Part shown: positions 33,712 to 38,361 of the stretch, one piece after another
Layout of the letters: each line of letters starts with the position of its first letter
Position numbering within the stretch: position 1 is the first letter of the stretch
Origin: Alphaproteobacteria bacterium
GTDB taxonomy: Bacteria; Pseudomonadota; Alphaproteobacteria; Micavibrionales; Micavibrionaceae
Direction of reading: 5' to 3'
Length of the DNA: 64,000 nt
NCBI GenBank assembly: GCA_030432025.1
Contig: JAUIIA010000002.1
Span: 207,276 to 271,275, forward strand
The notes under the pieces: generated by a model
What the model was told of the DNA's origin: nothing
The model's input: only the letters and a program-made list of their open reading frames with translations
Databases searched by the model: none
Position numbers and translations under genes: made by a program

Positions 33712-34059
33712 ATGTTCACACAAGATGTAAAGCTGCATATCTTTACAACCATCATGGGCTTCAGCAATTCAGAAGTCGTCCTGATGGCCGAAACGGCTGA
33801 GCGTATGGTCCATAATATGGAGTTTCAACGCAGCGCCGATCCTGACCTGAACGACAACGCCGAATTCCTCTACAATATGGACGGCGCAAAACTTGCCCTC
33901 GTCATCGCACAGCAACGGGTAAAGGACCTCGGCAAACCCGCCGCCGAACAGGCACAAAACATGCGCGGCCTGTGTGCCATGCTCGAAATCGAATTTTACG
34001 AGCAAATGCCCGCACCCGAAGATCTCCCCGATCTCGGCGAATACGGTCTCAAATTTTAA
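33712..34059 (+). CDS. Hypothetical protein (115 aa maximal ORF)
   Basis: ORF with host-like composition; no family recognised; start uncertain. Confidence 0.45.
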   Translation: MFTQDVKLHIFTTIMGFSNSEVVLMAETAERMVHNMEFQRSADPDLNDNAEFLYNMDGAKLALVIAQQRVKDLGKPAAEQAQNMRGLCAMLEIEFYEQMPAPEDLPDLGEYGLKF

Positions 34060-34071
34060 CGGATTAAATCT

Positions 34072-34308
34072 CTAGAAATCGTAGCCATAGCCATCATTGT
34101 CACGGGACGGCTCGTCCTTGCGGCGGTAACCCCCATCGGGGTCAGGCTCCCACCCGGGCGGTATTTCCTGAACATGGTCGTGTAGAGGAATTTGAACGGA
34201 GGAGCGTTCCTCGCGCTCACGGCGCTGTTTCTCGATTTCATGAATGATATGCGGCGGCAAAACCGGTTCGGCAGCATTCCATGTCGGCTGAAGGTCGGGA
34301 GCACTCAT
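34072..34308 (-). CDS. Hypothetical protein (78 aa)
   Basis: ORF with host-like G+C (33/60 at 34141-34200); Pro/Glu/Arg-rich. Confidence 0.4.
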   Translation of the reverse strand: MSAPDLQPTWNAAEPVLPPHIIHEIEKQRREREERSSVQIPLHDHVQEIPPGWEPDPDGGYRRKDEPSRDNDGYGYDF

Positions 34309-34421: not shown

Positions 34422-34862
34422 TTAGTGATGCTTCTTGATGCCAAGCGTCTTCCTTAAATTTTTAGCCTTTGAACCAATAAGAAGTATTCTCGGGTTTTCA
34501 AAAGCGACAAAATCGCGATTTGGATCATCAAACCCCTCACTAGTGATGGCTTGACGATATTCTATCAAAGCTGACTTGTTTTTTTCTTTTTTCTGATTAA
34601 TTCGCCAACCAAGAGTTTTAATTTTAGACAAAATCTTTATGGCTCGAAAATGATTGTTACTGTCAGCAGAAGGGCTGCACCAATGCTCAATGGCAAGCTC
34701 TTCAATTTCTTGAATAAGATCAGATAAATTGGATTTTTTAGAATTGGATTGATGCCATAAAAAAGCACCGCCACCGATTAAACTGCTTATGAGAGGCCCA
34801 ATTATAGCAGCTTGAATATTGGTTTCTTTAAGCCAGCCAAAAACGGAAAATTCATCGGCCAT
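34422..34862 (-). CDS. Small single-pass membrane protein, third gene of the AT-rich islet
   Basis: 146 aa with a TM helix IQAAIIGPLISSLIGGGAFLW near the N-terminus. The ATG overlaps the upstream stop (TAATG). The region has ~36% G+C. Confidence 0.6.
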   Translation of the reverse strand: MADEFSVFGWLKETNIQAAIIGPLISSLIGGGAFLWHQSNSKKSNLSDLIQEIEELAIEHWCSPSADSNNHFRAIKILSKIKTLGWRINQKKEKNKSALIEYRQAITSEGFDDPNRDFVAFENPRILLIGSKAKNLRKTLGIKKHH

Positions 34863-35188
34863 TAATTCACTCCGTCAATATACCCCATAATTTCATCAAT
34901 GAGAGAAGGATCGTCTTTAGATACAAAAGATATCTTAGTTAAAACCTCTTCTTTGTCGAAGCCCTCAACCCTTATCAAATTTGCAAAAGCTTCATCCAAA
35001 AAAGAGGATCCATAACCTTCCGTGCCATCTAACTCAATTATGACGGCGCTATGCTCTTTCAGAGCAGGTATTAAAAAGTTTTTTCGAAATGTTTCGCCAC
35101 TCGTTTCGCTATATTTGTCAAGTCGCCCATACGGAAACCTACTAAAATCATTAGCAATATTAATAACTATTTTTGACATACCATTCAT
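34862..35188 (-). CDS. STAS-like (DUF4325-type) domain protein
   Basis: 108 aa. FPYGR...VIIELDGTEGYGSSFLDEAF...ISFVS resembles DUF4325/anti-sigma-antagonist topology. ATGA overlap with the upstream gene. Confidence 0.65.
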   Translation of the reverse strand: MNGMSKIVINIANDFSRFPYGRLDKYSETSGETFRKNFLIPALKEHSAVIIELDGTEGYGSSFLDEAFANLIRVEGFDKEEVLTKISFVSKDDPSLIDEIMGYIDGVN

Positions 35189-36252
35189 TCACAAGTGTTT
35201 AAACAGATACTCCAAACGACCAAAGTACCGTAAAGAGTCGCATTGACATTTTTAGCTTCCCAGTTGCCTTCATCGTCAAAAGAGTATGCTCCTTTATAGC
35301 TAAAAATACTCAAAACACCATCAGAACTTTCACGAATAAGCTGTTGCATATCATATGATCCTTGCCCGCGCCCTTGTACCTTTGTGCTACTACGACCTTG
35401 AGACATAGCAAAAGACAGTTTTTCATCATCATAGGGCTCCCTCATAAGCTTTGAAGTTAGCTCCTCCAATTTTTCATTCCAGTTAACCTTTAACGTATTT
35501 GGAATGCCTGCCCCCTGGTCATACAGAACCATAACAATTGTATTATTATCATTAAGCTTAAAACCAGCGCGCCACCAAACGGGAATGCATGTAACATGAT
35601 TTTCGTCTTTATAAACTTCGGGATAAGCATGCTCGACAGCATTAGCCATTGCTTCAGTAAGAGCTCTATATATTTTACCAGAGTAAGGCGAAGCAGGTTT
35701 TACACCGTCTTCATAAAAAAGCTCCTTAATCCCTCTCATGAGGCTTTCTGGATTGTCTGAACCATACTTCAATCTAACAACATCTACTTCTGGCAATTCA
35801 TCAAAAGCAGGTTTGGAAGATTTGATTCCTAAAAGCTGAAAAAAGCCTAATTCATTAAGCATAAAATATACGTCAGAATCATCAGGGTAAGAACCAATGA
35901 TGCTTTTAGGTTCCTTTTTATTACAACGGTCAATCTCAGCAGCAAGGACAACGCATGTTTCCGCAGATATTTCTTCGCATTCGGAGAAATTCAAAAAGAC
36001 GAATAATTCATCTACAAAAATAATCTCTCTAATGAGATTAATGAAAGCTACAGTCTCCTCATAATTATCAAATAAACTCATTATGCGAGGCACTTTTATA
36101 TGCCGTCTGGAACCAGCTTTATTTAAGAGCCGCAACAGACCCTGCTTACGGCGCCTTAGGCGTTCCGGCCTAGTCTCTTCGCGTTTGTGAATGTTTCTGG
36201 CATGAATCGTATGCCATGACTTTGATTTTAACCCCATACGCAGCTCACTCAA
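35185..36252 (-). CDS. GHKL-superfamily ATPase, RsbW/SpoIIAB-like (putative Ser kinase) with an uncharacterised N-terminal region
   Basis: N-box LTEAMANAVEHA (aa ~198-209), G1 YDQGAGIP (aa 244-251) and G2 GRGQGS (aa 294-299). Maximal ORF from TTG 36252; alternative starts at ATG 36237 and ATG 36081. Confidence 0.7.
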   Translation of the reverse strand: MSELRMGLKSKSWHTIHARNIHKREETRPERLRRRKQGLLRLLNKAGSRRHIKVPRIMSLFDNYEETVAFINLIREIIFVDELFVFLNFSECEEISAETCVVLAAEIDRCNKKEPKSIIGSYPDDSDVYFMLNELGFFQLLGIKSSKPAFDELPEVDVVRLKYGSDNPESLMRGIKELFYEDGVKPASPYSGKIYRALTEAMANAVEHAYPEVYKDENHVTCIPVWWRAGFKLNDNNTIVMVLYDQGAGIPNTLKVNWNEKLEELTSKLMREPYDDEKLSFAMSQGRSSTKVQGRGQGSYDMQQLIRESSDGVLSIFSYKGAYSFDDEGNWEAKNVNATLYGTLVVWSICLNTCE

Positions 36253-36273
36253 TACCCCTTGAATATAAGTATG

Positions 36274-38361
36274 CTAAAGCCCCAACTCCGCCTCTTCAAG
36301 TTTTTTGACTTCATCGCGCAGTTTGGCGGCTTCTTCAAATTCCAAATTCTCCGCATGTTTGAGCATTTTCGCTTTCAGCTCCGCAATGCGTTTTTGTAAC
36401 GCGGCGGGGTCGTGGGCGAATTCCAGCATCTCCACATCATGCACGGTGCGTTCCTTCGGCTCTTCCTGCGTCCAGATCACCTCGCTCAAATTCTTCCGCA
36501 CACTTTCAGGGGTGATGCCGTGCTCCTCGTTATAGGCGATCTGTTTCTCGCGGCGGCGCTCGGTTTCATCAATCGCATATTGCATGCTTTCGGTAATGCG
36601 GTCGGCGTATAAAATCGCCTTGCCATCCACGTTCCGCGCGGCGCGTCCAATCGTCTGCACCAGCGAGGTCTTGCTGCGCAAAAATCCTTCCTTATCCGCA
36701 TCCAGTATCATCACGCGCATACATTCGGGAATGTCCAATCCCTCCCGCAGCAGGTTGATCCCGACCAGCACGTCGAACTCCCCTTTGCGCAAATCGTTGA
36801 TGATCTCTATCCGCTCCAGCGTATCAACATCGGAGTGGAGGTAGCGCACGGCAATGCCGTTTTCATTGAGGTATTCGCTCAACGCCTCCGCCATTTTCTT
36901 GGTCAGCGTGGTGACGAGCAAACGCCCGCCTTTCGCGATGACCTCTTTCGCCTCATGCATCAGATCATCGACCTGATGCTCGGTCGGGCGGATTTCGACA
37001 GGCGGGTCAATGAGGCCCGTCGGGCGCACGACTTGCTCGGCGAATTCACCGCCCGTTTGCTCCAGCTCCCAATCCCCCGGCGTGGCGGAGACATAGATGG
37101 TTTGGGAGCGGAATTGCTGCCACTCCTCGAATTTCAGCGGGCGGTTATCGACGGCGGCGGGCAAGCGGAAGCCGTGCTCCACCAGTGTGGATTTACGCGC
37201 GCGGTCGCCCTTATACATGCCGCCGATTTGCGGCACCATGACGTGGCTTTCATCCAGAAACATCAACGCATCATCGGGCAGGTATTCGATGAGGGTTGGC
37301 GGTGGCTCCCCCGGTGCGCGGCCCGTGAGGTAGCGGGAGTAATTCTCGATACCCTTGGTCGTGCCCGTGGCCTCCAGCATCTCCAGATCAAATGTCGTGC
37401 GCTGATCGATGCGCTGCGCCTCCAGCAGCTTGTTGTTCTTCTCGAAAAACTCGATCTGGATTTTGAGGTCGTTTTTGATCTGTTTGATCGCCTGCTGCAT
37501 CGTCGGACCGGGCGTGATGTAGTGCGAGTTCGCGAAGATACGCACCCCTTCGAGGTCGGCGAATTTCTCACCCGTCAGCGGGTCAAACTCGATGATCTTT
37601 TCAATTTCATCACCGAACATGTCGAACCGCCATGCGCGCTCGCTCATGTGGGAGGGGAACAGCTCCACCACATCGCCGCGCACACGAAAACACCCACGCT
37701 CGAACGCAATGTCGTTGCGCGTATATTGCAACATGACCAGACGCTGGATCAGTTCCTGACGGTCGATTGTATCCCCACGCGTGATGTTGAAGCTCATCGC
37801 GGCGTAGTCTTCCTTCGACCCGATACCGTAGATGCAGGACACGGAAGCGACGATAATCACATCGCGGCGCTCGAACAACGCACGGGTCGCGGCGTGGCGC
37901 ATACGGTCGATCTGCTCGTTAATGGAGCTGTCTTTCTCGATGAACGTATCCGTGCGTGGCACATAGGCCTCGGGCTGGTAGTAATCGTAATAGGAGACGA
38001 AATATTCAACCGCATTATCGGGGAAAAAGCTTTTGAACTCCGCATATAACTGCGCGGCGAGTGTCTTGTTCGGCGCGAGGATGAGCGCGGGGCGCTGCAT
38101 TTCCTGAATTACATGCGCCATCGTGAAGGTCTTCCCCGAGCCCGTAACACCGAGCAAAACCTGATCGGTCAGCCCGTCCTGAACCCCCTCCACCAGTTGC
38201 TTGATCGCCTTGGGCTGATCGCCGGTGGGGGTGAAGTCGGTATCGATGCGGAACGGGATAGTCGGCTCCGTGCCCGTTTTCTGCATCTCGACTGCTGTCT
38301 GATTTAATTCAACTACGCCTCGCATACCCTTAGATATAGGACGCAGCGACTCGAATGCCAA
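36274..38361 (-). CDS. uvrB: Excinuclease ABC subunit B
   Basis: [10 protein letters not shown], Walker [13 protein letters not shown] box, helicase motifs and a C-terminal UVR domain ([12 protein letters not shown]). TTG start at 38361; the start is uncertain. Confidence 0.95.

Follow-up and report, generated by a model that had tools for sequence, protein, structure and literature searches.

A kinase, a DUF4325 protein and a small membrane protein behind uvrB: a candidate membrane-effector counterpart of the VapKSC system

The closest described relatives of the system discussed here are VapKSC and CapK-CapS, both reported by Chambers et al. (EMBO J 2026, PMC13373217). The VapKSC operon encodes VapK, a kinase made of a STAS and a GHKL domain; VapS, a STAS antitoxin; and VapC, a PIN toxin. 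VapS ends in a short helix, and by binding VapC it inhibits the toxin; VapC is released when VapS carries the phosphomimetic change S48E or loses its C-terminal tail. Protection by the system against phage Bas42 amounts to about 2 log, and 289 vapKSC loci have been reported. In the second system, CapK, which has a helix-turn-helix (HTH) before its STAS and GHKL domains, phosphorylates the repressor CapS (a STAS domain followed by a winged HTH, wHTH) in the presence of single-stranded DNA (ssDNA) from DNA repair, and the signalling after mitomycin C depends on uvrA and uvrB specifically. Activation by ssDNA needs a conserved aromatic residue at the groove between STAS and GHKL domains in both kinases, F54 in VapK and W68 in CapK (PMC13373217, as for all of the above). 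The element that we compare with them is a three-gene islet directly behind uvrB in a 64,000-nt stretch of an alphaproteobacterial genome (Micavibrionaceae, contig JAUIIA010000002.1), and by "the window" we mean the whole of that stretch. The islet occupies positions 34422-36252 (1,831 nt). We call its genes K (kinase), S (STAS-like partner), and T (membrane protein), and the set the K-S-T triad.

A first-pass annotation, made from the letters of the window and a list of its open reading frames (ORFs), had described three translationally coupled ORFs on one strand. This is exact, as read from the sequence: the minus strand carries K (355 aa), S (108 aa), and T (146 aa), an ATGA overlap joins the stop of K to the start of S, and a TAATG overlap joins the stop of S to the start of T. 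We lean towards the view that K-S-T is a self-contained membrane-effector counterpart of VapKSC, that is, of a kinase-regulated toxin-antitoxin/anti-phage system. The features on which the comparison draws are these.

35185..36252, minus strand: K, a candidate Ser kinase with a basic helix at its N-terminus followed by STAS-like and GHKL domains (ORF; AlphaFold2 (AF2) model with pLDDT 82 and pTM 0.80)
36112..36252, minus strand: long basic alpha-helix of K, aa 1-47 (16 K/R against 4 D/E; residues 2-47 helical in the AF2 model)
35758..36105, minus strand: STAS-like alpha/beta domain of K, aa ~50-165 (beta-alpha-beta-alpha-beta in the model; aligns with the STAS domain of VapK)
35203..35685, minus strand: Bergerat-fold (GHKL) ATP-binding domain of K, aa ~190-350 (Foldseek; sub-threshold Pfam HATPase_c)
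35626..35661, minus strand: N-box of K, LTEAMANAVEHA, at aa 198 (E200 and N204 in 135/135 unique homologues, equivalent to VapK E156/N160)
35500..35523, minus strand: G1 box of K, YDQGAGIP, at aa 244 (D245 and G247 in 135/135, G249 in 133/135; equivalent to VapK D190/G192/G194)
35356..35373, minus strand: G2 box of K, GRGQGS, at aa 294 (G296 and G298 in 135/135; equivalent to VapK G237/G239)
34862..35188, minus strand: S, a DUF4325 STAS-like protein, predicted kinase substrate and inhibitor of T (Pfam PF14213, E 1.5e-14)
35003..35008, minus strand: codons of S61-S62 in S, the candidate phospho-acceptor, within the motif GYGSSFLDE (S61 aligns with VapS S48)
34422..34862, minus strand: T, a bitopic membrane protein, predicted effector (family hidden Markov model (HMM) E 2.2e-16; AF2 pLDDT 87.9)
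34755..34817, minus strand: single transmembrane (TM) helix of T, aa 16-36 (hydrophobic segment kept across the family)
34446..34754, minus strand: predicted cytoplasmic four-helix bundle of T, aa 37-139, with conserved E..HW and (Y/L)RQA.T motifs (model)

The comparison with VapKSC is strongest for the kinase. Using VapK and VapS sequences transcribed from the AlphaFold 3 model file of PMC13373217, an hhalign comparison of the K-family profile to VapK has a probability of 96.3% and an E-value of 1.9e-9 over 245 columns (K 73-350 against VapK 33-288). As aligned, K is shown to be homologous to VapK across both the STAS-like and the GHKL domains, with all ATP-binding and catalytic residues kept. 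The first-pass annotation recognized nothing at aa ~58-190 of K, and that region proves to be the STAS-like domain homologous to the one in VapK, with the basic helix before it. In the AF2 model of K, which is built on 27 homologues, a long helix at the N-terminus (aa 2-47) is followed by an alpha/beta domain (aa ~50-165) and then, at the C-terminus, by an alpha/beta sandwich. Compared by Foldseek to the PDB, the model returns Bergerat-fold proteins only (SpoIIAB, CheA P4, Hsp90, GyrB), and the best target-normalised TM-scores are 0.62-0.73 for SpoIIAB and ~0.5 for CheA P4. Although the Pfam matches are sub-threshold (HATPase_c E 1e-4, HATPase_c_2 E 3e-5), the Bergerat fold of K is confirmed by the modelled structure, and on that fold K carries what defines the GHKL superfamily: an N-box with E...N, a G1 box of the form DxGxG, and a G2 box of the form GxG. 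The Bergerat motifs stand where they had been placed from the letters alone, and the SpoIIAB-like kinase fold proposed with them agrees with the Foldseek result.

The basic N-terminal helix has no equivalent in VapK. These ~50 aa are specific to the K family, in which the region has a median net charge of +12 across 131 homologues. The start codon of the K ORF is a TTG at 36252, and an alternative in-frame ATG at 36237 gives an N-terminus like that of its relatives. Searches of K and S against PDB chains by phmmer and by profile gave no significant match, the best being a generic STAS protein (E 0.4-1.2), and the VapS-VapC entry 9Z7O was not matched in them.

S scores 53.9 bits against PF14213 (cut-off 23), which upholds its first assignment to DUF4325. 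VapS matches the same family (E 2.7e-17), and because VapS belongs to DUF4325 we can understand an earlier remark about a PIN subgroup "transcriptionally coupled to DUF4325 genes". Among the three genes conservation is highest in S. There is a Ser at S61 in 99/107 and at S62 in 106/107 unique S proteins, and VapS S48 falls in the S61 column in two alignments, one by hhalign and, independently, one by MAFFT, so that the Ser pair does sit at the phospho-acceptor position, as had been claimed. The 108 aa of S make up a STAS domain followed by a brief tail and the C-terminal tail bears a conserved motif, DPS(L/Y)..E, in which it differs from VapS. S proteins also match phrog_5816, which is 441 positions long and of which they cover only ~337-441, DUF4325 taking up no more than the last ~100 positions. 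The length of phrog_5816 suggests that some phages encode K-S fusion proteins.

The third gene is where the two systems differ: it encodes not the PIN nuclease VapC but T, a protein with one TM helix and a four-helix bundle. The family alignment and the model both agree with the one TM segment that the first-pass annotation gave to this 146-aa product. The model of T has helices at 4-62, 70-87, 93-106, and 124-139, and the TM helix runs on into the bundle. Lysine-rich residues after the TM helix predict, by the positive-inside rule, that T is N-out and C-in. Across the family T107 is invariant, and R103 and Q104 are nearly so. No Pfam domain, PIN included, is found in T above threshold; a match to alpha-acetolactate decarboxylase (Pfam E 6.6e-4, below the cut-off) was rejected, T being an all-helical TM protein. 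The PHROGs matched by K (3364, function unannotated), S, and T are all three of "unknown function", and RefSeq labels the E. coli copies "hypothetical protein" (x2) and "STAS-like domain-containing protein".

In other respects the triad looks like VapKSC. There are three genes in the same order, the catalytic residues of K and VapK are identical, S belongs to DUF4325 as VapS does and aligns with it at the acceptor Ser, a phosphatase and a sigma factor are absent in both, and in both other defence genes are often nearby. The order K, S, third gene, with overlaps of 1-4 nt, is that of vapK-vapS-vapC and also the usual one of antitoxin before toxin. Apart from T, the K-S-T family differs in being mainly prophage-borne and far larger than the 289 vapKSC loci. 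With CapK-CapS the triad would share a STAS-GHKL kinase that phosphorylates a STAS partner on a conserved Ser, and a connection with uvrA/uvrB and DNA damage. K and S lack the HTH at the N-terminus of CapK and the DNA-binding wHTH domain at the C-terminus of CapS: no HTH match was found on K or S, and the N-terminus of K is a single long helix. In CapK-CapS there is an immune operon downstream to regulate; in the triad, T occupies that place. In the literature that we searched we found no description of a GHKL, DUF4325, and TM triad, and WonAB and VcSduA (a GHKL-Shedu fusion) of V. cholerae were checked and are unrelated. The islet can then be called undescribed only in part: the K-S core is known from CapK-CapS and VapKSC, published in 2026, while the variant with a membrane protein is unnamed.

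Far from being rare, the K family is large: at 50% identity, an exhaustive profile search yields 1,422 clusters with E <= 1e-30 and 3,101 with E <= 1e-10, most of them of ~350-380 aa and matched end to end, and we take the family to number at least 1,422 clusters at 50% identity, as a lower bound. A word-indexed search had made the family appear rare (35 clusters for K, 5 for T), which the exhaustive profile search and iterated HMMs identify as an artefact of sensitivity. In IMG/VR, at least 110 viral contigs carry a relative of K. The second gene is present in 74/80 of the viral loci that we fetched, matching the S HMM in 74/74, and 70/71 of the third genes fall by iterated HMM in one family, which includes the T of the window (E 2.2e-16). 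At loci from named genomes, S is found in 39/44 and a detectable T in 30/44. In the neighbourhoods viewed individually, K is followed by a DUF4325 gene and mostly then by a T-like gene, one K-T fusion (P0029) apart. K-S-T is thereby shown to be a tightly coupled unit conserved across phyla. Its hosts include Alpha- and Gammaproteobacteria, Akkermansia, Desulfobacterota, Flavobacteriaceae, Planctomycetota, Nitrospinota, and Binatia. The closest relatives of K (62-65% identity) are in Micavibrio-like and other alphaproteobacterial metagenome-assembled genomes (MAGs), and homologues of T occur in E. coli, Klebsiella, Providencia, Serratia, and Buttiauxella. The triad is rare among complete E. coli genomes (6/5,426) and plasmids (2/72,556).

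The fusion P0029 (472 aa, L013:5507-6925) is a natural metagenomic K-T protein without an S gene, located in a satellite-like island with integrase, AlpA, and primase genes. We rejected the idea that it represents a two-gene (K-T) variant clade, as its nearest relative, P0028 (L227), has the full triad.

The genomic position of the triad in prophages resembles that of a classic exclusion system. In phage lambda, rexA and rexB are lysogen-expressed cargo immediately downstream of cI and on the same strand; RexB is polytopic, and the Rex model involves no phosphorylation gating. Among 150 ORFs flanking the triad at 56 non-redundant viral loci, the most frequent families are Peptidase_S24 (18), HTH_3 (13), Phage_integrase (8), HTH_31 (7), and Phage_CI_repr (6), and a CI-type repressor is the immediately upstream same-strand ORF in 9/10 sampled prophages. 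The prophage order cI, K, S, T, with cro divergent, is the layout of lambda cI-rexA-rexB. Marinobacter phage AS1 has the same cI-K-S-T arrangement, and so does Francisella phage KIRK, according to its authors' table. The likeness to RexAB is one of position and function only, that is, cI-adjacent lysogen cargo with a proposed cytoplasmic sensor and membrane effector; T is single-pass, and no relationship in sequence or fold was detected.

Chromosomal triads are found within islands with integrase, AlpA, and primase genes, and they adjoin genes for HsdR, an OLD-like ATPase, GmrSD, and SLFN. The 120 flanking ORFs of 31 genome loci include MADS (mad2/3/8), type I/II/IIG restriction-modification, PARIS, ShosT, DruA, and PDC candidates. 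These surveys show the main habitats of K-S-T to be prophages, in which it usually comes directly after the CI repressor, and defence islands. They also answer what the first-pass annotation had asked of the neighbourhoods of homologues: the triad is conserved as a unit, its contexts are mobile and defensive, and elsewhere it recurs beside uvrA.

As far as the searched literature and databases go, the K-S-T architecture, the membrane effector, the rexAB-like position, and the uvrA/uvrB association are undescribed. The 2026 description of the kinase/STAS pair has as outputs a repressor and a PIN toxin only, and a small membrane protein would be a third output, apparently the most abundant of the three. 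Its carriers are temperate phages across many phyla, E. coli and Klebsiella phages included, and it sits in them at a classic lysogen-expressed position. This offers a testable hypothesis for thousands of "hypothetical" prophage genes, and it broadens the picture of immune sensor modules being used again with exchanged effectors.

By analogy with VapKSC, we propose that in unstressed cells S would be bound to the cytoplasmic bundle of the membrane-anchored T, and T would be inert. A cue from infection or DNA damage, maybe a nucleic-acid species sensed with help of the basic helix, would activate K. Active K would phosphorylate S at S61 or S62, and phosphorylated S would release T. Free T would then perturb the inner membrane, by oligomerisation or depolarisation, and the outcome would be arrest or death (abortive infection) or a block to superinfection, much as for lambda RexAB, which acts at the same position in the genome. 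Phosphorylation state as the check on an effector, which the first-pass annotation had imagined, is the experimentally shown logic of VapKSC (PMC13373217), and the part that we infer is T as the effector.

A fuller version of this proposal we hold only tentatively. In it, K-S-T would be a large unnamed, mostly prophage-encoded family of exclusion or abortive-infection systems in the rexAB slot by cI, in which the kinase senses nucleic acid from repair or replication, phosphorylates the DUF4325 protein, and unleashes a new single-pass membrane effector, and which would have been repeatedly captured into uvrA/uvrB operons. If this were true, nucleotide excision repair (NER), the pathway that feeds the related CapK, would be physically linked to a switch for growth arrest at the membrane.

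Several points weigh against reading K-S-T as a membrane-effector counterpart of VapKSC. VapK F54 aligns with E94 in the K of the window, in a column that holds K 32, E 17, R 14, S 12, Q 9, and Y 7 times among 135 sequences. The aromatic residue of ssDNA activation is not conserved in the K family, the column is variable and mostly charged, and the trigger may differ. The hhalign match of S to VapS is by itself weak (E 0.024), and the link between S and VapS rests on their common Pfam membership. PADLOC-DB v2.0.0 has zero matches for K, S, or T at E <= 1, so the database check that had been suggested for the islet picks up none of its components, and there is therefore no defence phenotype on record for the K-S-T family. 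The modelled fold of T is a generic helical bundle, with no recognisable pore, enzyme, or toxin fold; a fold search of T against the PDB gave nothing significant (best E 0.46), and all the matches are generic bundles. The toxicity of T, its binding by S, and its role as effector are carried over by analogy. Finally, if S were an essential antitoxin, a fusion such as P0029 without S could hardly be tolerated.

P0029 bears as well on the alternative that survives best, in which T would not be a toxin but serve as an anchor or sensor at the inner membrane, to tether K or recruit S there, and K-S would signal to an unlinked output, for instance after sensing an envelope perturbation at phage DNA entry. 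The fusion argues for K and T being physically near each other. The strongly basic helix of K could equally contact acidic lipids, and the fold of T resembles the four-helix-bundle sensor domains of QseE, KinB, NarQ, and Tar about as well as anything, with all such fold matches being non-significant (E > 0.4). On the other hand, the positive-inside rule predicts the bundle of T to be cytoplasmic and not periplasmic, there is no conserved fourth gene to serve as the output, and the third gene of VapKSC is the effector. We consider a role as anchor or sensor unlikely, and keep T as the predicted effector in what follows.

How did the triad come to lie behind uvrB? Two further features matter here.

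36274..38361, minus strand: uvrB, the upstream neighbour, same strand, of native composition; possible co-transcription partner
36253..36273, minus strand: spacer of 21 nt from the uvrB stop to the K start (the scan gives no terminator-like signal on this strand)

The G+C content of the islet is 0.384, against 0.494 for the window, and the islet is the minimum: 0/1,170 non-overlapping 1,831-nt windows are equally low. At third codon positions, G+C is 0.31-0.34 in the islet genes, 0.73 in uvrB, and 0.60-0.61 in two small ORFs on the other side. The five G+C hand counts on which a foreign composition had first been argued are all exact when recounted (22, 21, 31, 37, and 33 of 60 per 60-nt line), and the contrast in overall and third-position G+C bears that argument out. 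The closest uvrB loci of a metagenome collection (UvrB 63-80% identical) have K, S, or T in 0/80 cases. In 2/80, a cold-shock gene is convergent just downstream of uvrB, and the gap is 325 nt in one of them (L153) versus 2.85 kb in the window. The comparison of the uvrB 3′ flank thus finds relatives without the triad, and these are too distant to define an exact empty site. The foreign composition, together with these triad-free relatives in which uvrB faces a cold-shock gene, supports a horizontally acquired insertion. No att-like direct repeats were found flanking the islet, there are no phage genes around the triad in the window, and, as had been stated, no ORF within ~5 kb of the islet encodes a sigma factor, a PP2C phosphatase, an integrase, or a transposase. 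The UvrB of the window is at most 80% identical (over its C-terminal 408 aa) to any UvrB in the metagenome collection (L147-L226); with the nearest K homologues in Micavibrio-like MAGs, its source seems to be a sparsely sampled alphaproteobacterium.

The proximity to uvr genes is not confined to the window, where uvrB, 21 nt, and K-S-T follow each other on the same strand. In a Rhodospirillaceae MAG (L102, 7436-12772) divergent ssb and uvrA have the triad exactly between them, with 31 nt from its end to uvrA; in two Sphingomonadales loci (L109, 7686-12018, and L117, 7707-12831) the triad is convergent with uvrA at 59-88 nt; and at a further locus, L005 (8001-16768), its distance to ssb-uvrA is 4 kb. 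The K proteins of these loci are only ~28-57% identical to that of the window, and we therefore regard them as separate insertions. Three independent immediate adjacencies are seen versus ~0.07 expected, for 2 genes with 2 sides each, ~3,000 genes, and ~55 loci, an estimate that is rough and post hoc and makes no correction for phylogeny. What lends the pattern more weight is that CapK-CapS signalling needs uvrA and uvrB (PMC13373217), and the recurrent placement would in turn be independent genomic support for an early-NER dependence of this class of kinases.

Given the 21-nt gap and the absence of a terminator between them, the module in the window is probably co-transcribed with uvrB. The promoter and terminator scan performs at chance level overall, and its sole use here is that absence of a minus-strand terminator. 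No alpha-type SOS box was found close to the islet or to the promoter of uvrB, and counts over the whole window are those expected by chance. Upstream of K, ~130 loci show no enrichment of the gamma-type box and only a weak excess of perfect alpha-type boxes (4 vs. ~1.1 expected). LexA boxes are then not generally enriched upstream of K, and any coupling would therefore act through co-transcription or an activating ligand and not through an SOS operator.

All this could be read differently, with the uvr-adjacent triads domesticated as a host DNA-damage checkpoint that is not anti-phage, in which K would be activated by ssDNA from NER, and T would bring growth or division to a transient halt during repair. 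The independent placements beside NER genes (the window, L102, L109, L117, and L005), the missing terminator between uvrB and K, and the need of CapK for uvrA and uvrB after mitomycin C (PMC13373217) would all fit. But the composition of the islet is still strongly foreign, hence its acquisition is recent, most members of the family are in prophages or defence islands, LexA boxes lack a general enrichment, and the adjacency statistic is post hoc. Such a checkpoint seems to us quite improbable.

Less probable still is that the triad belongs to the life cycle of the prophage, tuning lysogeny maintenance, induction, or the timing of lysis, with T acting on holins or on the membrane at induction. 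It does adjoin CI and S24 repressors, and in the lambdoid prophages of E. coli it is found between the antiterminator Q and the holin, as in the following locus.

L144:6596-8462: E. coli triad (GCA_032247875.1; also NZ_CP011915, NZ_CP069522, NZ_CP120549)

The E. coli triad, which strains PSUO2, FDAARGOS_1267, and B1172 also carry, is however oriented opposite to late transcription, as morons are, and the triad is autonomous, being found without phage genes in the window and also between aroA and gyrA, in a type II secretion system (T2SS) operon, and in defence islands. The slot between Q and holin is also that of the stx genes in Stx phages. In the T2SS case (L227:3538-8409), the triad is wedged between the genes of the T2SS/type IV pilus ATPase (T2SSE) and platform (T2SSF), an insertion into a housekeeping operon.

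A canonical partner switch of the RsbW-RsbV or SpoIIAB-SpoIIAA kind controlling an alternative sigma factor, to which the triad is alike in its kinase fold (SpoIIAB being the best structural match) and in a STAS-like substrate with a Ser at the start of helix 2, is hardly credible and had already been discounted in the first-pass annotation, since the NCBIfam RsbW and SpoIIAB equivalog models score K at 12.8 and 12.7 bits, where the cut-offs are 145 and 135, sigma factor and PP2C genes are missing both from the flank in the window and from the commonest neighbour families at the 31 genome and 56 viral loci, and K has domains beyond those of anti-sigma kinases.

A few observations concern the surroundings of the triad. 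In the window only T comes after K-S, and beyond T there are unrelated small ORFs of native composition. Two of them, at 33712-34308 (115 aa on the plus strand and 78 aa on the minus strand), lie between T and the cold-shock gene, and they have no counterparts in the 80 closest uvrB loci. In the closest named relative, an alphaproteobacterial MAG (L097:4254-5404), a gene of the PIN-like family DUF4411 (E 1e-56) stands directly upstream of K, probably as a further toxin-type module of that island.

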